From Gloeobacterales cyanobacterium (GTDB taxonomy: Bacteria; Cyanobacteriota; Cyanobacteriia; Gloeobacterales; PMM-0068), in contig JBBRSB010000002.1 in assembly GCA_038245785.1 (NCBI GenBank), positions 269,588-333,587 of the forward strand: a DNA stretch of 64,000 bases, read 5' to 3'. Positions 30,575 to 44,698 of this stretch are shown in pieces. Each line of letters opens with the position of its first letter. Position 1 is the stretch's first letter. A program made the translations under genes and the position numbers. The notes below the pieces were generated by a model. It had not been told where the DNA came from. It did not search any database and saw nothing but the letters and a program-made list of their open reading frames with translations.

Positions 30575-30784
30575 ATGAAACGAACGTTATACATTCCAGA
30601 CGAACTCTGGAGCCAGCTTGAGGAATACTTGAAGAACCATCCAGAGCAAAACCCATCTAGTCTGATACAGGTGGCTCTTGAGGAGAAATTACGCCCTAAA
30701 AATGCTTCAAGACTCTTGGAACTGGCAGGCATTGTAGAAAATGCACCACCTGATGCATCGGTTAACGAAGACTATCTGAGATGA
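30575..30784 (+). CDS. Ribbon-helix-helix antitoxin
   Basis: MKRTLYIPDELW RHH-like start; ATGA overlap with the PIN gene. Confidence 0.75.
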   Translation: MKRTLYIPDELWSQLEEYLKNHPEQNPSSLIQVALEEKLRPKNASRLLELAGIVENAPPDASVNEDYLR

Positions 30785-31188
30785 AACGGCTCGTTCTAGA
30801 TGCTGGACCACTCATTGCTCTGTTTTCCGCCAAGGACGATTACCACGAGCAGTGTAAGGCTGGTTTTGGCAAACTGCCTGGTTTATTTAACGAGGTTCTG
30901 ACTCCCTTGCCCATTCTATTCGAAGTCTATAAATTCATATGTCGGGAACAGTCTTCTAAAGTAGCTCAAACTGCATTGGCGGGCATTTATGAAGAGACTT
31001 TAGTGGTACCGCTGGAGATGAAAATGTTTCAGGAAATCTATAACCTTGTACTGCAGATGCCTGAGTGGAAGGGCAGTTTAGAAGATGCTTCAGTGGTAAT
31101 CACAGCCCAACGGTATGAGGCGAGCGTATGGACGTTGGACTATCGAGACTTAAGTTGGTTCAAGAATTTGGAGCTCTGGACACCTTAG
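30781..31188 (+). CDS. PIN-domain (VapC-like) toxin
   Basis: VLDAGPL, E, SLEDA, WTLD.RD acidic residues. Confidence 0.85.
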   Translation: MKRLVLDAGPLIALFSAKDDYHEQCKAGFGKLPGLFNEVLTPLPILFEVYKFICREQSSKVAQTALAGIYEETLVVPLEMKMFQEIYNLVLQMPEWKGSLEDASVVITAQRYEASVWTLDYRDLSWFKNLELWTP

Positions 31189-31545
31189 CAAATTACTTTC
31201 CTACTTCTATGAAGTTATAAATGGGAGGATAAATAAAACTGAACGCAGAAAGAAGTCCTAACCTTATCTTGTCAGTCAGAATGAAACCCACCAACTAAAT
31301 ATACTCTGGTCAATAGTTTATTGTCTTCTAACTTGATAAATAGTTTTGTACTTTTAGTCCCTATTGGCTCTGCTTTGATGCATCCCTTTTAATTTCTTGA
31401 AGCTTAATGAGAGCTAATGAAAAAGGAATTTGCATATATCTCCGATTGAACACTCTTGGATAACTTAAAAGTTATTTAAACTAGCCGTCTTGGACACATT
31501 TAAGTTATCATATAGGTGTATGAAGATAATATCTTTTGTTGCCTG

Positions 31546-32007
31546 ATGCTTAAAGACACCACCATCGCACGCCAGCAGCTTGATAAGCGCTTTGCCAGAA
31601 TGTCGCTCGATCTTTTCACCCGACCTCCCCGTGGCTGGATTCGGGCGATCCGAGACAGTTTAGGGATGACAGCAAACCAACTGGCTGTACGTTTGGGTGT
31701 TTCTAAGACACGGGTTGTGGTTATGGAAAAAGGGGAGGTCGAGGGCAGCTTAACTCTGAAATCCCTGGAAAGAGCAGCTGAGGCATTAGACTGTACCCTC
31801 ATCTATACATTGGTTCCTAACCGCACTTTAGAAGAGATAGTTCACGACCAGGCTAGGGTTATTGCCTCAGAAAGATTGGCTGCGGTGGAGCATTCAATGC
31901 AACTTGAAAATCAAGCAGTTCCTACTAGCGATTCAAAAAGGCACCTAGACCAATTGATCGAGCAGATCTTACGTGATGAGATTCGAAGGTTGTGGGACCG
32001 TTCATGA
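31546..32007 (+). CDS. Mobile mystery protein A (XRE HTH)
   Basis: RPPRGWIRAIRDSLGMT..QLA.RLGVS, VEHSMQLENQ. Confidence 0.85.
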   Translation: MLKDTTIARQQLDKRFARMSLDLFTRPPRGWIRAIRDSLGMTANQLAVRLGVSKTRVVVMEKGEVEGSLTLKSLERAAEALDCTLIYTLVPNRTLEEIVHDQARVIASERLAAVEHSMQLENQAVPTSDSKRHLDQLIEQILRDEIRRLWDRS

Positions 32008-32591
32008 GCGACTTGTTGGAAGCAGATGATGCCGCCACACCTCTGACGCCAGAAGAAATGCAAGCGCTAATCCCTACGTATATCACATTACGAAGTGAAC
32101 TTAACGAAGCCGAACAACAGGGCATCCTTGCTGCCGAGCGTTGGGCCTTTAGTAAGCAACACAAAGATTTACTTGGCGAGAAGCTTCTGCGCGACCTGCA
32201 TCGACGCATGTTTAAAGATGTATGGCATTGGGCAGGGCAGTATCGCAAGACAGCCAGGAGTATCGGGATAGATGCATGGCAAATCTCCACCAATTTGAGG
32301 TTACTCCTTGATGATGCGCACTTCTGGATAGACAAACATACTTATCCATGTGATGAAATCGCTGTACGCTTTCACCACCGCTTAGTGTTCATTCACCCTT
32401 TTCCCAATGGGAATGGACGCCATGCACGGCTGATGACCGACCTCCTTATTGTCCAGTTACAAGGCAAACGATTTACATGGGGTAGAACAAGTCTGGCTAC
32501 AACAAGTGACACCCGAAAAAGCTATATTGAAGCTCTCCAAACTGCTGACCAAGGCAATATTATGCCGCTACTTACTTTTGCGCGTTCCTAA
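32004..32591 (+). CDS. Mobile mystery protein B (Fic domain)
   Basis: ATPLTPEE..LIP, ELNEAEQ, canonical Fic motif HPFPNGNGRHAR; ATGA overlap with protein A. Confidence 0.9.
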   Translation: MSDLLEADDAATPLTPEEMQALIPTYITLRSELNEAEQQGILAAERWAFSKQHKDLLGEKLLRDLHRRMFKDVWHWAGQYRKTARSIGIDAWQISTNLRLLLDDAHFWIDKHTYPCDEIAVRFHHRLVFIHPFPNGNGRHARLMTDLLIVQLQGKRFTWGRTSLATTSDTRKSYIEALQTADQGNIMPLLTFARS

Positions 32592-34193: not shown

Positions 34194-35066
34194 ATGACAG
34201 ATCTAACAGTTCAAGACCATCTAAACGAGTGCATCGATGAATGGCTGGATTATCTAACCGTAGAGCGTGGGCTCAGCGACCATACAATTCAGGCCTATCA
34301 GAAAGATTTACGAGATTTCGCTGCATTTTTGGCAGACCAAGACTGGACCAAAATGGAACGGGGTGGCTTGAGCCGTTTCCTCCGCTATCTGCATGGACAG
34401 CGAATTAGTCCCCGCTCGATGGTGCGCAAACTGGCGGCGGTGCGTTCTTTCTATCGTTTTGGAAATCGTCAGGGCTGGGTCGAAGCCAATCCTGCCGCTG
34501 AATTGAATCTCCCTAAAACAGGACAGGCGCTACCGAGTGTACTCACTGTAGAAGAAATGGAGAAAATGCTAGATTCCTGTGCCACTTCACTGGAACGGGC
34601 GGTACTGGAATTGTTCTACGGCTGCGGTTTGCGCGTTTCTGAATTATGCAGCCTCCGCCACGAAGACCTTAATCTGGAGGGTGGCTATCTGCGTTGTCTG
34701 GGCAAAGGAGATAAAGAACGGGTTGTTCCAATGGGAGAAGAAGCCCAAGACGCGATCCAGGCCTATCTCTCCAAAAAAGCACCTTTCAAATCTGGAGATT
34801 TCCTCTTCCATACCGAAAAGCAAAAAAACTTTAATCGTTTCACTGCCTATCGCTTGATTCAAACCTGCGCCGAGCGTGCCCAAATTAACCAAAAAATTAG
34901 TCCACACACTTTGCGCCACAGTTTTGCAACCCATCTTTTAGAAGGCGGAGCCGATCTGCGCGTCGTCCAAGAACTGCTCGGACACGCCAATATCACCACC
35001 ACTCAGCTCTATACCCACGTTTCCCGCGCCAGAATTCGCAAGGTGTACGATGAGGCCCGTCGGTAA
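34194..35066 (+). CDS. xerD: XerD-type site-specific tyrosine recombinase
   Basis: ERGLSDHTIQAY, GLRVSEL, GKGDKER, HTLRHSFATH, LLGH, TTQLYTHV. Confidence 0.88.
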   Translation: MTDLTVQDHLNECIDEWLDYLTVERGLSDHTIQAYQKDLRDFAAFLADQDWTKMERGGLSRFLRYLHGQRISPRSMVRKLAAVRSFYRFGNRQGWVEANPAAELNLPKTGQALPSVLTVEEMEKMLDSCATSLERAVLELFYGCGLRVSELCSLRHEDLNLEGGYLRCLGKGDKERVVPMGEEAQDAIQAYLSKKAPFKSGDFLFHTEKQKNFNRFTAYRLIQTCAERAQINQKISPHTLRHSFATHLLEGGADLRVVQELLGHANITTTQLYTHVSRARIRKVYDEARR

Positions 35067-35210
35067 ACCAACAAAACAAAATTGATGTGTTATGATGATC
35101 GGTGTGGACACTAAACCAAATAACTGATTTGCGGAGAAAAAATTAAATAATGTACAAACCATACAAGGAGGGAGCTCGAATCATGTACACATTTAATTTA
35201 GGAATCGTTT

Positions 35211-35633
35211 ATGACCATTCCTCCGTTCAATTCCGATGGCAATCTCCCCCTGGGGATTCATTCTGCTACTTGGCAAGAGTTTGTTAATTATTTGGGGTTT
35301 ACAGATAGACGACAGGAACTTCTTCTTGGCTTAAAGTCTGTCTTATCTCAACTTAAAAAAGTTAACTGCAGAGTAGTTTATATCGGGGGCAGTTTTGTAA
35401 CAAGCAAAGCAGAACCTGGTGACTTCGACGGTTTTTGGGATCCTACGTATGTCGATTTAGTCGAGCTAGAGAAGAATGCTCCTGAGCTGCTTAGGAGTGA
35501 TCGTAAAGTTCAGAAGGCAAAGTATGGGGGTGAACTGTTTGCGGACATGGCATTCCTAAAAGCATTCGATAAAGATAGAGAAAAAAGAGAGAAGGGCATC
35601 GTTGCCATTGATTTAGAGAGCTTACCACCATGA
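35211..35633 (+). CDS. DUF6932-like Pol-beta-superfamily nucleotidyltransferase, copy 1
   Basis: IPPF...LP.GIH start; GSFVT-x5-GDFD (hG-S...DxD) motif; KGIV end. Confidence 0.7.
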   Translation: MTIPPFNSDGNLPLGIHSATWQEFVNYLGFTDRRQELLLGLKSVLSQLKKVNCRVVYIGGSFVTSKAEPGDFDGFWDPTYVDLVELEKNAPELLRSDRKVQKAKYGGELFADMAFLKAFDKDREKREKGIVAIDLESLPP

Positions 35634-36097
35634 TCAAAAATGAACGACAATATCGCATTACAAAGGCTGAAGCGGAGAAGTTTGAGCTCACCTTAGCAAA
35701 GTTGAGTGAAACTTTGCCTCAGAGTGAGGAAGTTCCCCCCCTTCTTCTGCAAGTAAAAAAAGATGCTCTACAGAGTTATCTAGATTCCCTACGTGAAGAT
35801 ATAGAAGAGTACGAGCTACTTCAGTCTGGCCAACAACCCATGCTTGAACTTCAATCTTTAGATGAACTCCCAAAAAGTCTTATCAGGGCGCGGATTGCCG
35901 CAGGGCTTACTCAGAAAGAGCTTGCTGCTCGACTTGGGTTACCAGAACAGCAGGTACAGCGCTATGAAGCGACAGAGTATGCTTCCGCGAATCTCACAAG
36001 AGTGTTAGAGGTAACTCATGCTCTAGGGATGAAGGTTATAGAAAAGTTTCTCGTCTCTGTGACTCCTGTTCCGCGACAAGGGACAGAAAGTACTTAG
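35630..36097 (+). CDS. XRE-family HTH protein with N-terminal coiled coil, copy 1
   Basis: MIKNERQY; LIRARIAAGLTQKELAARLG...QRYE; ATGA overlap. Confidence 0.85.
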   Translation: MIKNERQYRITKAEAEKFELTLAKLSETLPQSEEVPPLLLQVKKDALQSYLDSLREDIEEYELLQSGQQPMLELQSLDELPKSLIRARIAAGLTQKELAARLGLPEQQVQRYEATEYASANLTRVLEVTHALGMKVIEKFLVSVTPVPRQGTEST

Positions 36098-37392
36098 TTG
36101 ACACTCCCCGCTCTGAAGAGACGGGGATTCTTGCTTCTCGCCTCCGGCTGCCGGACACAACGAGCTAACTTTCTGGGCTAAGCTCTCGCTTAATCCAAAA
36201 GAGGTCTGCTCTCCACAAGCTTGAAATTCCCTATGCCCTAGGGTATTTACTGCCTCAATGCCCCTACGGGGCGCAGTACCTTGTATTCCTTGCTTGACAG
36301 TAGAACACGTCATGCCTTTATTTAGGATATTGATAGCTGCCGCATGGTCCCGATGCAGTCGCAATCCACAAGCACATTGATGGGTGCGCGTAGATAGCGC
36401 CTTCTTGACTCTCGCATTACACCCAGGACAATCCTGAGATGTATATTGCGGCGGCACAGCTATCACCTGTATCTGATGGAGTTTCCCAAAGTAGTCCACC
36501 CACTGTGTGAACTGCCCCCAGGAGGCATCCGAGATAGACTTAGCTAGATGATGGTTCTTGACCATATTGCGTACTTGAAGATTCTCGTAGACTACCAAAT
36601 CGTTAGATTGGACGGGCGCCCTTGCTGCCTTCACGGCAAAGTCTTTACGCTGTCTAGAGACCTTCAAGTGCTTGTGGGCCATGCCCTGAATCGCTTTTCT
36701 TCTATTGCTGGACCCTTTCTTTTTCTTGGATAACCTCCGTTGTAGTCGCTTCAAGCTCTTCTCTGACTTGCGTAGCAGTCTAGGATTTTCTACTTGTACC
36801 CCATTAGAATCGGTATAGAAAGATTCAAGGCCAAGGTCTATACCGACCACTAAGCCGTTGTACTCATGCTTCTCAGTACGCTCAATATCCACACAGAATT
36901 GCGCATAATAGCCATCGGCACGACGCACGACCCTAACTCTTTTAATTTGAGCCAGTGCATAGAGACTTAAATCTCTAGTACCTTTGAGCTTGAATTTTCC
37001 AGCCTCAAAACCATCAGTGAATGTGATAGCTTTTCTATCATCTGAGAGTTTCCAGCCTGAGGTTTTATATCTACAGAGTGGCCCCGTTTCTTGAATCGAG
37101 GAAATCCTTTCTTTCCTGCTTTAGCTGATTTGCAATTAGCATAGAATCGGCTGATAGAAAACCAAGCACGCTCAGCGCTGGCCTGTCTAGCCATTGAGTT
37201 GAGCTTTTTGGCCCACTCAAACTCTTTGGCTAAGACAGCACATAAAGCAGACAGTTCTTTCTTTCCAACACCTTTATTATCTTGCCAAAATCTAAGAGCT
37301 TTATTGCGGACGAAATTAGCAGTGCGGATGGCTTCATCAAGTTCAGCGAACTGCTGTTTTTGTCCTCTCAACTTGGCTTCTAGAACTAGCAT
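36023..37392 (-). pseudogene. tnpB: RNA-guided endonuclease TnpB, frameshifted near 37070
   Basis: Two ORF-track fragments; adding 1 nt restores VEYKTSGWKLSDD; RuvC motifs GIDLG, YENL, HRD and the Zn finger are intact. Confidence 0.85.
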
Positions 37393-37485
37393 TTATTGAT
37401 TATAGCCTAACAGCAACTAAAAAAGTCGTTCTGAAGTGGTCCCTGAGCTTGTCGAAGGGAACGAGGCTTTAAACCCATTTTTTTG
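36098..37485 (-). mobile_element. TnpB-only IS200/IS605-family element (IS1341-like) with IS608-type ends
   Basis: Minus strand: target TTAC (37489-37486), left end with AAAG plus hairpin, right end GAAT-ccccgtctcttcagagcggggag-tg-TCAA ending at 36098; no tnpA. Confidence 0.88.
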
Positions 37486-37544
37486 GTAACTAGGACCGTT
37501 TCTGCGTACTATGAAACTCAACTTCTAGCGCGTAGAGAAGAGCT

Positions 37545-37970
37545 ATGACCATTCCTTCTTTTAGTTCCAATGGAAATCTCTGCGAAGGGATCCACCAAAC
37601 TACATGGCAAGAGTTTGCAAACCATTTTGGATTTACAACGAAACAACAGCAAATCCTTCTTGGCTTAAAATCGGCCTTGCTAGAACTCAAGCAAACTAAT
37701 TGCAAAGTAGTTTATATCGGTGGCAGTTTTATCACAAATAAGCCAGAGCCCAATGGTTTTGATGGCTGCTGGGATCCTCTAGGCGTCGACTTAGCGGCCT
37801 TAGGAAGAAATGCACCCACTTTACTTAAGTTAATAGATCAGGAAGAGCAAAAAGCTGAATATGGTGGTGTATTATTCCCTTCCATGGATTTTGAAGAATT
37901 TTTCCAACAAGATAGAGAAGGGAATCCAAAAGGCATCGTTGCAATTGATCTAAATAGTCTTTCATCATGA
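37545..37970 (+). CDS. DUF6932-like nucleotidyltransferase-fold protein, copy 2 (DxD changed to GxD)
   Basis: Full-length paralog of 35211..35633; motif reads GSFITNKPEPNGFD. Confidence 0.7.
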   Translation: MTIPSFSSNGNLCEGIHQTTWQEFANHFGFTTKQQQILLGLKSALLELKQTNCKVVYIGGSFITNKPEPNGFDGCWDPLGVDLAALGRNAPTLLKLIDQEEQKAEYGGVLFPSMDFEEFFQQDREGNPKGIVAIDLNSLSS

Positions 37971-38404
37971 TTAAAAATGAACATCAATATCAAATTACTA
38001 AAGCCGCTGCCGAGAAATTTGAAGCGGCACTAGCAAGGTTAACGGAATCTGCTCAAAAGAGTGGTGCACCCCAGGCGCTACTCTGGCATGTACAAAAAGA
38101 TGCACTCCAAAGTCAACTAGCTCAATTGCACGCTGAGATTGAAGAGTACGAATTACTAAGTTCAGGAAAACAGTCTGTCCTTGAGCTTCAATCCTTAGAA
38201 GAACTTCCCTTCAGCCTGATCAAAGCACGCATTGCCGCCGGACTTACCCAAAAAGACCTAGCGAATCGACTCGGTTTACCCGAGCAACAAGTACAACGCT
38301 ACGAAGCCAATGACTATGCTTCCGCTAATTTTTCAAGAGTGCTCGAAGTATCCCGAGCGCTTGGAATTAAGGTCGTTGAAAAGTTCCATATCTCCGTATC
38401 TTGA
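37967..38404 (+). CDS. XRE-family HTH protein with N-terminal coiled coil, copy 2
   Basis: Paralog of 35630..36097; ATGA overlap. Confidence 0.85.
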   Translation: MIKNEHQYQITKAAAEKFEAALARLTESAQKSGAPQALLWHVQKDALQSQLAQLHAEIEEYELLSSGKQSVLELQSLEELPFSLIKARIAAGLTQKDLANRLGLPEQQVQRYEANDYASANFSRVLEVSRALGIKVVEKFHISVS

Positions 38405-38496: not shown

Positions 38497-38739
38497 ATGG
38501 CTCAAGTTGCCAAGATATTTCTGAATGGACGCAGCCAAGCAGTAAGGTTGCCGTCTGCTTATCGGTTCGACTGCAAAGAAGTCTATATCCGTCGAGATCC
38601 AGAGACTGGGGATGTGATCCTCTCACGCAAGCCAGGAACATGGAAGGACTTCTTCGAGTTGGTGAAAGACGCCGATGTACCTGACGACTTTATGGCTGAC
38701 CGCCAGGATGCTCCACCCCAGACGCGAGATTTGTTTTGA
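38497..38739 (+). CDS. vapB: VapB antitoxin (AbrB/MazE fold)
   Basis: AKIFLNGRSQAVRLP. Confidence 0.9.
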   Translation: MAQVAKIFLNGRSQAVRLPSAYRFDCKEVYIRRDPETGDVILSRKPGTWKDFFELVKDADVPDDFMADRQDAPPQTRDLF

Positions 38740-39149
38740 TGGTGGAAGTAGGCTATATGCTCGACACGAACACGGCAAGCTACATCATCAAAGGCAACGT
38801 TCCCTCAGTGCGGGAGCGGCTGCTTCGTATACCCATGGCCCAAATATGTATCTCAACAGTGACCCAAGCCGAGCTACTGTTTGGGGTAGCCAAGAAACCC
38901 GAGGCAACACGGCTTAAAACCGTTGTCCATGAATTCCTGCTGCGGGTTGAGATACTGCCTTGGGATTGTGAAGCGGCACAGGAATACGCTGAAATTCGTG
39001 CCTATCTTGAGCGAGACGGTAAGCCGATGGGAAATATGGATATGATGATTGCGGCCCACGCGTTGGCTAGTAAGGCTGTTCTTGTGACGAATGACCAAGC
39101 CTTTTGGCACATTGAACGCATGTGTCTAGAAGACTGGACCAAGCCTTAG
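38736..39149 (+). CDS. vapC: VapC PIN ribonuclease toxin
   Basis: YMLDTN, AELLFG, DMMIAAHA, LVTND. Confidence 0.92.
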   Translation: MMVEVGYMLDTNTASYIIKGNVPSVRERLLRIPMAQICISTVTQAELLFGVAKKPEATRLKTVVHEFLLRVEILPWDCEAAQEYAEIRAYLERDGKPMGNMDMMIAAHALASKAVLVTNDQAFWHIERMCLEDWTKP

Positions 39150-43969: not shown

Positions 43970-44698
43970 GTGACTCTAATTTTTACGTTAAAAGTAGCAG
44001 AAGGACTGGTTTTGGCAGCAGAAAGCCGTATGACAATCAGTGAAGCAAATGTTCCGGTCTACTATTCTGAAGTCCAAAAGTTATTTCCCCTAAAGGACTA
44101 TCCAGCAGCCATCTTGACCTGTGGAAGCGGTTTTTTGCAATCCAAAGCACTCTCCTCTTGGATTAGGGCTTTTGATAGTGAGTTGCCCCATAGTCTTTCC
44201 ATTCGCCATGTCGCAGAACGACTACAAAAGTTTTTAGCTCCAGCCGATCCAGGCACAACAACGACGCTCGTTTTAGCTGGATTCAATCGAGAAGCAGTGC
44301 AAGGATTTGAAGCGGAGGTGTATAAGATCACTGCTTTTGAAAATGGAGACCAAAACTTTTTTGATCTCTCTGAATCGGTCAGTTTTTGGGATGGAGATTT
44401 TGAGGCTGTAACTCGACTGCTATTGGGGCGCTCCCCGACCTATTTCGAGGGCATTGCTTCACACATAGACAAAGCCCATCTAAAGAACCTGGACAAATCG
44501 GTACAAATGAATCCACCCTATTACGCGATGAGCCTTCAAGAAGGCATAGATTTTGTATACTTCCTCATGCAGACACAAATTCAATTTCAGCGTTTTGCCA
44601 GTCAGCCTCAAAGCTGTGGCGGGCCTGTCGATATAGCAGTCATCACACCAGAGGAAGGTTTTCAGTGGGTCCGGCGTAAAACTTTGCGCTTATCTTGA
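43970..44698 (+). CDS. Proteasome beta-like Ntn-hydrolase
   Basis: Thr right after the initiator, GLVLAAESR, QKLF, C-terminal GGPVDIAVIT. Confidence 0.65.
   Translation: MTLIFTLKVAEGLVLAAESRMTISEANVPVYYSEVQKLFPLKDYPAAILTCGSGFLQSKALSSWIRAFDSELPHSLSIRHVAERLQKFLAPADPGTTTTLVLAGFNREAVQGFEAEVYKITAFENGDQNFFDLSESVSFWDGDFEAVTRLLLGRSPTYFEGIASHIDKAHLKNLDKSVQMNPPYYAMSLQEGIDFVYFLMQTQIQFQRFASQPQSCGGPVDIAVITPEEGFQWVRRKTLRLS

Follow-up and report, generated by a model that had tools for sequence, protein, structure and literature searches.

Comparison with described toxin–antitoxin systems

To our knowledge, the nucleotidyltransferase (NTase) toxins studied to date make up the DUF1814 MenT/AbiEii group. Here we analyse a 64,000-nucleotide stretch of DNA from a Gloeobacterales cyanobacterium (assembly GCA_038245785.1, contig JBBRSB010000002.1, positions 269,588 to 333,587; 'the window'), which carries two copies of a gene pair encoding a small NTase-like protein of family DUF6932 (PF22014) and a protein with an N-terminal helical hairpin and an XRE-type helix-turn-helix (HTH) domain. 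Both pairs are members of a two-gene family that is widespread and, it appears, undescribed. We judge it moderately probable that DUF6932/hairpin-XRE pairs constitute an autoregulated type II toxin–antitoxin family with an NTase toxin, a reading in which we infer toxicity, neutralisation and repression; if true, it adds an unrelated-looking and much smaller family of NTase toxins. An initial annotation had flagged the locus as a candidate toxin–antitoxin or defence system, and the toxin–antitoxin part of that proposal is supported indirectly by three results of this analysis: obligate pairing together with decay that ran one way in a draw of 300 genomes, a conserved operator-like palindrome and a predicted complex. 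The features concerned are:

35211..35633, + strand: N1, DUF6932 Pol-beta-like NTase, putative toxin (140 amino acids (aa); PF22014 116.8 bits; model predicted local distance difference test (pLDDT) 95)
35630..36097, + strand: H1, N-terminal helical hairpin and XRE-HTH, putative antitoxin/autorepressor (155 aa; HTH_3 34.8 bits)
37545..37970, + strand: N2, DUF6932 paralogue, open frame, probable pseudo-enzyme (141 aa; PF22014 105.7 bits)
37967..38404, + strand: H2, hairpin and XRE-HTH paralogue (145 aa; HTH_3 42.7 bits)
35071..35090: operator-like palindrome, directly after the stop codon of a xerD-like gene and 120 nt ahead of N1

In MenAT/AbiE systems (MenT1–4, AbiEii; DUF1814) an NTase is the toxic part of a two-gene module, as it putatively is here, and MenA1 blocks MenT1 through direct binding, according to the accessible part of PMC10435456. 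The present pair differs in its enzyme family, in the length of the enzyme (about 140 aa), in its toxin-first order and in having a hairpin and XRE partner instead of AbiEi/MenA; no DUF1814/AbiEii or AbiEi/MenA match appeared at E-values up to 1 in Pfam, 0.1 in NCBIfam and 1 in PADLOC. MNT-HEPN (MntA-HepT) likewise contains a minimal Pol-beta NTase (MNT), and MNTs give the best structural matches to the present enzyme. There, however, the MNT is the antitoxin, whereas the decay pattern described below suggests that here the NTase is the dependent (toxic) gene, and the DUF6932 partner has no HEPN match. The initial annotation's statement that neither a HEPN nor an AbiEi-type partner is present agrees with the Pfam and NCBIfam scans and, for AbiEi, with the PADLOC scan as well. 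The Xre-MNT pair of Streptococcus suis (Xress-MNTss, a TADB pair) also joins an XRE repressor to an NTase under an autoregulated promoter, but in the accessible part of PMC8406773, on which this comparison by description is based, MNTss is KNTase-like and toxic only when periplasmic, and that part describes no hairpin domain. N1 and N2 gave no NTP_transf_2 match in Pfam at E-values up to 1, and DUF6932 alone was above its cut-off.

In gene order and partner layout there is a resemblance to HigBA of the Escherichia coli type and PD-lambda-2, which share the toxin-first order, N-terminal helices followed by an XRE domain, and an optional C-terminal ImmA/IrrE peptidase. The first gene here nevertheless encodes a putative NTase and not a RelE-fold RNase, the hairpin of DUF6932 partners is about twice as long, and its profile match to HigA is not significant. 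This agrees with the earlier claim of a higBA-like order with an exchanged toxin: the first gene is DUF6932, and no RelE-type family matched N1 or N2 in the Pfam, NCBIfam and PADLOC scans. The DUF6932 partner on an Acinetobacter plasmid (L166) matches PD-Lambda-2_B across its peptidase half (E 7e-78), and a study of 2009 (accessible part of PMC2701414) predicted fusions of XRE to COG2856 next to toxins of the RelE or PIN type. PADLOC's PDC-M63AB is alike in that PDC-M63A weakly matches N1 (E 1e-11), N2 and other DUF6932 proteins (to 6e-8); it differs in that H1 and H2 have no PDC-M63B match, and it represents a distant subfamily.

The annotation's statement that the pairing had no known description also appears to stand: a literature search, with subscription papers and bioRxiv supplements largely outside its coverage, found no paper on DUF6932, PF22014 or this pair, and the accessible parts of PMC2701414, PMC6929052, PMC10440598 and PMC12839542 do not describe it. 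Another source accessible in part, 10.64898/2026.10.19.760177, refers to Pol-beta NTase toxins in a supplementary figure; these may include DUF6932. Judged by its sequence features, the pair appears to behave like a type II system yet lacks the features that define each of the named families.

Pairing and one-sided decay

The pairing was assessed from both sides: of 583 confirmed GTDB loci found with the enzyme the 80 best were retained, and of 378 metagenome loci found with the partner likewise the 80 best. On the enzyme side the partner lies directly downstream in 77 of 80 loci and the other three are at a contig edge (77/77 assessable). On the partner side DUF6932 lies upstream in 75 of 80, with two at an edge and three unpaired (75/78 assessable). 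Chance does not account for this association, since the same pairing recurs across many phyla.

Because best-hit sets favour intact genes, decay was examined in one draw of 300 genomes of the phylum, searched from both sides. This draw contained 28 DUF6932 loci, 25 of them with a hairpin-XRE partner. Among these 25, a whole partner stands beside all 20 whole enzymes and is retained by four of the five broken ones. From the partner side, 16 of 37 loci had no Pfam DUF6932 match; ten of these were inspected, and seven proved to be whole partners with no enzyme or a remnant, two were truncated and one was at an edge. In all, 11 whole partners lack a whole enzyme, with no case of the reverse among 20. 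Such an asymmetry is the pattern expected if the enzyme cannot persist without its partner. Outside the draw, L003 is an exception in which the hairpin is kept and the enzyme is degenerate.

The pair also resembles type II modules in being a small, coupled two-gene operon with a patchy and mobile distribution. DUF6932 occurs in 3 of 31 relatives, 27 of 301 genomes in the phylum and 32 plasmids. We estimate about 960 stretches in GTDB representatives, ranging over cyanobacteria, Chloroflexota, Actinomycetota, Acidobacteriota, proteobacterial plasmids and an archaeon. Phages gave no match among 50,697 INPHARED records and three loci in IMG/VR, which makes no case for phage carriage. Tandem arrays are found elsewhere in cyanobacteria, with four pairs at L043:3418-7601 and two at L040:213-2222. 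On the Acinetobacter plasmid (L166:3956-5676) a Tn7-like element has DUF6932 and a hairpin-ImmA partner at its end, and an IS30-type gene and blaNDM-1 lie about 1.4 kb from the pair. On a Klebsiella plasmid (L167:3995-7905), OloA/OloB-like defence genes directly follow a gene for a DUF6932 fusion protein of 392 aa.

A conserved operator-like palindrome

The palindrome ACACAAC-N6-GTTGTGT was found with at most three mismatches in 85 of 115 non-redundant upstream regions, against 0.62 in shuffled sets, and its core ACAA-N8-TTGT in 66 of 118, against 0.27 expected. Its position is also conserved: 72 of 94 sites end between −6 and +3 nt relative to the start codon, mostly 2–6 nt before it, and TTGAC often stands upstream. 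Together, the position and the TTGAC element suggest a leaderless, self-repressed promoter.

The window site at 35071–35090 scores 21.5 bits by a matrix built from the relatives, the best value in the window and the second best in the 5.0 Mb genome. The remaining high-scoring matches elsewhere in the genome fall within genes or correspond to a long hairpin, and we therefore claim no regulon. No palindrome site precedes copy 2, nor is one found at the same-order loci L001 and L003. The family −35 element was not seen before the window palindrome, and a sigma-70 scan returned four sites against 5.4 expected. Overlapping the end of the palindrome is an extended −10-like element, TGTTATGAT (window 35088–35096). 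An ATG at the family's usual start position opens a frame of only 11 codons (window 35092–35127).

The DUF6932 enzyme

Profile searches place both enzymes in DUF6932, the family suggested in the initial annotation, far above the PF22014 cut-off of 27 bits and with matches spanning model positions 1–142. Six positions are invariant among 119 aligned sequences (G60, D73, Q101, G107, F110 and G129). Four more (D71, E108, R34 and K102) deviate in just one sequence of the 119, which each time is N2. The putative catalytic set of G-S, D-x-D and E is likewise retained in 118 of 119, and the third acid is D or E in 150 of the 153 full-length enzymes that have a partner. N1 carries G60-S61, D71, D73 and E108, with the relevant strands at 73–76 and 108–110, and departs from the family at C75, at Q120 and by a loop deletion.

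N2 has G at D71, V at E108, Q at R34 and E at K102, so that two of its three putative catalytic acids are replaced. The full Pol-beta motif is present in N1 and absent from N2. These substitutions are not an assembly error, since P0241, 92% identical to N2 and the inspected representative of a cluster of 10, has the same letters. N2 is probably catalytically dead.

The N1 model gave no Foldseek match at an E-value of 0.001 or better. In VIA, nearly all 50 matches were Pol-beta-superfamily chains, and the best were minimal NTases: 2rff (Z 5.5; root-mean-square deviation 4.3 over 91 aligned residues), 1no5 (Z 4.5) and 8xeh (Z 4.3). A PDB sequence search with the enzyme profile found no match, and the ESM Atlas returned DUF6932 clusters only. 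Taken together, the motif and the uniform class of fold matches make DUF6932 likely to be a divergent Pol-beta NTase. The DxD motif given in the annotation is present in N1 and missing from N2; the minimal Pol-beta fold that it proposed has matches that are consistent in kind and weak in score.

The hairpin-XRE partner

The H1 model consists of two long helices (residues 5–27 and 37–65) followed by the HTH domain, and both H1 and H2 begin with MIKNE.QY. The initial annotation described this N terminus as a HigA-like helix pair ahead of an XRE HTH. The MIKNE.QY start, the hairpin and the HTH_3 match are all present, but the likeness to HigA is not significant: against 15 HigA-type sequences the motifs are co-linear, the hhalign probability is 12% (2.8% before the removal of two wrong open reading frames (ORFs) and one more row) and the pairwise E-value is 0.0024. 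A fold search with H1 returned generic hairpins and HipB/Cro-like HTHs, with no full-length match and no HigA among the listed rows, and a PDB search with the partner profile returned generic XRE proteins only.

Partners of distant DUF6932 proteins are also led by a hairpin, whether joined to XRE (L247–L251, L253), to ImmA (L166) or to another domain (L245, L256). The hairpin looks like the constant part of the partner. The partners at L245 and L256, which belong to a distant DUF6932 subfamily, are 306–321 aa long and have no PADLOC match, and L245 also has no NCBIfam match. At L217 and L206 a gene that by eye is RelE-like or HNH-like stands upstream of a hairpin-XRE partner in place of DUF6932, a possible toxin swap. 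Actinobacterial partners (L014:5441-6175, L042, L052) end in a repeated, Lys/Ala-rich, histone-like tail.

Predicted complex of enzyme and partner

N1 and residues 1–145 of H1, both supplied as alignments, gave a predicted complex with a score of 0.75, against 0.02 for the best of three controls. For comparison, 116 of 157 solved pairs but only 2 of 215 mismatched ones come up to the mark used for this score, figures that are rough for the alignments used. Contacts agreed to at least 98% between runs, with partner pLDDT of at least 81. H1 helix 38–53 contacts N1 at residues 75, 78–84, 94–98 and 110–115, two residues beyond D73 and E108. The second hairpin helix is thus predicted to dock beside the putative catalytic strands, where the hairpin could occlude the active site. 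Inter-protein covariation (146 pairs, effective number of sequences 109) is treated as uninformative: the top pairs were gappy columns, none of the top 50 lies in the predicted interface, and the 25 predicted contact pairs have a mean z of 0.55 against a null 99th percentile of 0.47.

Proposed mechanism and the case against it

In the mechanism that we propose, the DUF6932 protein is likely an NTase toxin, which the hairpin of its partner, predicted to lie beside the putative catalytic strands, would keep inactive, and the XRE domain of the partner likely acts as a repressor on the palindrome that heads the operon. In the present genome the entire array would stand behind a single operator. 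The live module would be copy 1; copy 2 would be disarmed, perhaps still able to bind its own partner, and is now separated from the operator and copy 1 by an insertion element. Given a toxin, the analogy with MenT/AbiEii makes it possible, with chances a little short of even, that its acceptor is the 3' end of an RNA (tRNA) and its effect translation arrest. For further work the family offers a candidate operator, a predicted interface and, in the probably dead N2, a natural control, and a domain of unknown function gains a testable role.

Several observations weigh against a toxin–antitoxin system. The upstream regions in which the palindrome was counted also supplied its consensus, every count includes kin that are not independent of one another, and the fold scores of N1 are low, with the best VIA Z under the tool's trust level. 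Truncated partners accompany 2 of 76 assessable whole enzymes in the enzyme-side set (L034 and one L043 copy, hairpin kept), and the metagenome locus L114 retains only 34 aa of partner. The frame of N2 stays open without its acids, in P0241 as well, and this persistence suggests a role other than catalysis. Small NTases described so far often act as antitoxins (MNT-HEPN; title of PDB 7aer), and in PD-lambda-2 toxicity resided in the XRE-peptidase, from which the upstream toxin-like gene gave rescue (accessible part of PMC9519451). PDC-M63AB, finally, gave no defence in its native host, according to the accessible part of 10.1101/2024.12.20.629700.

Some of these points lead to an alternative in which the enzyme is a regulatory partner, binding or nucleotidylating the XRE protein or a fused peptidase and so tuning repression, or rescuing from a toxic partner as in PD-lambda-2 and MNT-HEPN. 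Reversed polarity has its precedent in the PD-lambda-2 work just cited, N2 survives without catalytic acids, and all 45 closed long partners (at least 400 aa) among 160 loci contain HExxH. The predicted interface would serve such a function too, placing partner residues 42–50 beside the catalytic strands with the well-kept S49 among them, although S49 is not invariant in the broad alignment. A toxic partner is spoken against by the 300-genome draw, in which partners outlive enzymes and not the reverse. We consider this alternative unlikely.

The long form and its operon

The long partners add an ImmA-type peptidase to the hairpin and XRE domain, with Pfam Peptidase_M78 matching three of seven tested at E 0.01. 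A DUF4186 gene follows 35 of the 39 long partners with room downstream and none of 84 short ones. The long-form order is DUF6932, hairpin-XRE-ImmA, DUF4186, radical SAM, methyltransferase-like, ASCH and nucleoside monophosphate (NMP) kinase (L013:5441-10430, L085, L104, L117 and about 30 more); the radical SAM protein has a weak pVip match (E 9e-6). L117 carries an additional dCTP deaminase-like gene. Literature searches on the combination of radical SAM, ASCH and NTase and on DUF4186 returned nothing related. The long form links DUF6932 to this radical-SAM operon, which appears to be undescribed. No DUF4186 match was found in the present genome, and its pairs are therefore the stand-alone form.

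These operons allow a second alternative, in which the pair is the switch or the first enzyme of a nucleotide-modifying operon; the enzyme would make a small nucleotide signal or intermediate, and two-gene forms like those in the window would be remnants. The gene content of the operon and the restriction of DUF4186 to long partners argue for it, as does the mixing of long and short forms on the enzyme tree, where some 'short' labels are contig-edge cases. Yet closed short partners outnumber long ones by 100 to 45 and their enzymes retain the catalytic acids, short forms make up whole cyanobacterial clades and tandem arrays (L040, L043), and the present genome lacks DUF4186. We rate this somewhat below the regulatory alternative.

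A more far-reaching extension of the toxin–antitoxin proposal would make DUF6932 a new class of minimal NTase toxin with a non-tRNA-like substrate, caged by a portable hairpin grafted onto XRE, XRE-ImmA, ImmA and other domains. In the long form the peptidase would set free the toxin and, with it, the viperin-like radical-SAM/methyltransferase/ASCH/kinase operon, the two forming one anti-phage programme. Dead copies such as N2 would be retained as co-repressors or decoys and would determine the threshold of a live paralogue. As a whole this scheme is speculative and improbable.

Two old copies and an inserted element

The initial annotation's two diverged copies of a translationally coupled pair were recovered as four ORFs, N1 and N2 being 61% and H1 and H2 69% identical, with an ATGA overlap at the N/H junction of both pairs; tblastn against the genome found no other copies. 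The proportion of synonymous differences (pS) is near saturation, at 0.68 for N1/N2 and 0.75 for H1/H2, which makes the duplication old, and the proportion of nonsynonymous differences (pN) is well under it, at 0.24 and 0.19. On an enzyme tree of 128 sequences, from which about half of the short-form GTDB loci were omitted, N1, N2 and three close database proteins form a single clade (support 0.98). The two pairs are, on this sequence evidence, old in-paralogues; recent tandem duplication is ruled out by the near-saturated synonymous sites and the tree. In itself the doubling is of modest interest: the array is old and has one probably live and one disarmed enzyme.

The array is tandem in that both pairs have the same order, but the copies are not adjacent. 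Between them, and outside the module, lies the following element:

36098..37485, − strand: IS200/IS605-type element (1388 bp; NF040570 on both tnpB pieces)

Its tnpB is split into pieces at 36967–37392 and 36023–36928. On the minus strand the element is inserted behind TTAC and its right end, which is structured (z −3.6), is TCAA, an end pattern that we take to be that of IS605-family elements. These ends, and contigs of runs X2 and X3 that connect 36096 straight to 37485, show that it entered an existing array of four genes. In run X4 one contig connects 35092 to 37485, which leaves that strain with copy 2 alone behind the xerD-like gene. Run X1 may derive from the same source as the window and does not count as independent. 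A same-genus genome has unrelated genes at the site behind this recombinase, so that the content of the site varies between genomes. An integron cassette was considered and dropped; the recombinase is XerD-like, and attC-type evidence was sought only in the junction letters. A second tnpB element in the genome (G000:C12:98896-99984) has 64–68% protein identity.

That both copies are decaying cargo without present function, for which one could cite the lost acids of N2, the deviations of N1 at C75, Q120 and its loop, the insertion, the family −35 element not seen before the palindrome and the absence of copy 1 from the X4 strain, is very improbable in view of four open frames, pN far under pS and close relatives, at 89–94% identity, with equal-length open frames.

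Neighbouring genes

The array is flanked by these context genes:

34194..35066, + strand: XerD-like tyrosine recombinase
38497..39149, + strand: vapBC pair (NF040493 above cut-off; PIN 65.5 bits)

The annotation placed the pairs among bona fide toxin–antitoxin modules. This is accurate directly downstream, where VapBC passes both the NCBIfam VapB and the Pfam PIN cut-offs, and less so upstream, where a PIN pair (30575–31188) and a mobile mystery protein A/B pair (XRE and Fic; 31516–32591) lie 3–5 kb away beyond two housekeeping genes. Elsewhere in the genome, a HigB and HigA-ImmA pair (L170, G000:C7:115169-116380) is PD-Lambda-2_B-like (E 2e-145). A 242-aa ORF at window 43970–44698, with no Pfam match, resembles by eye a proteasome/Ntn-hydrolase-type protein.

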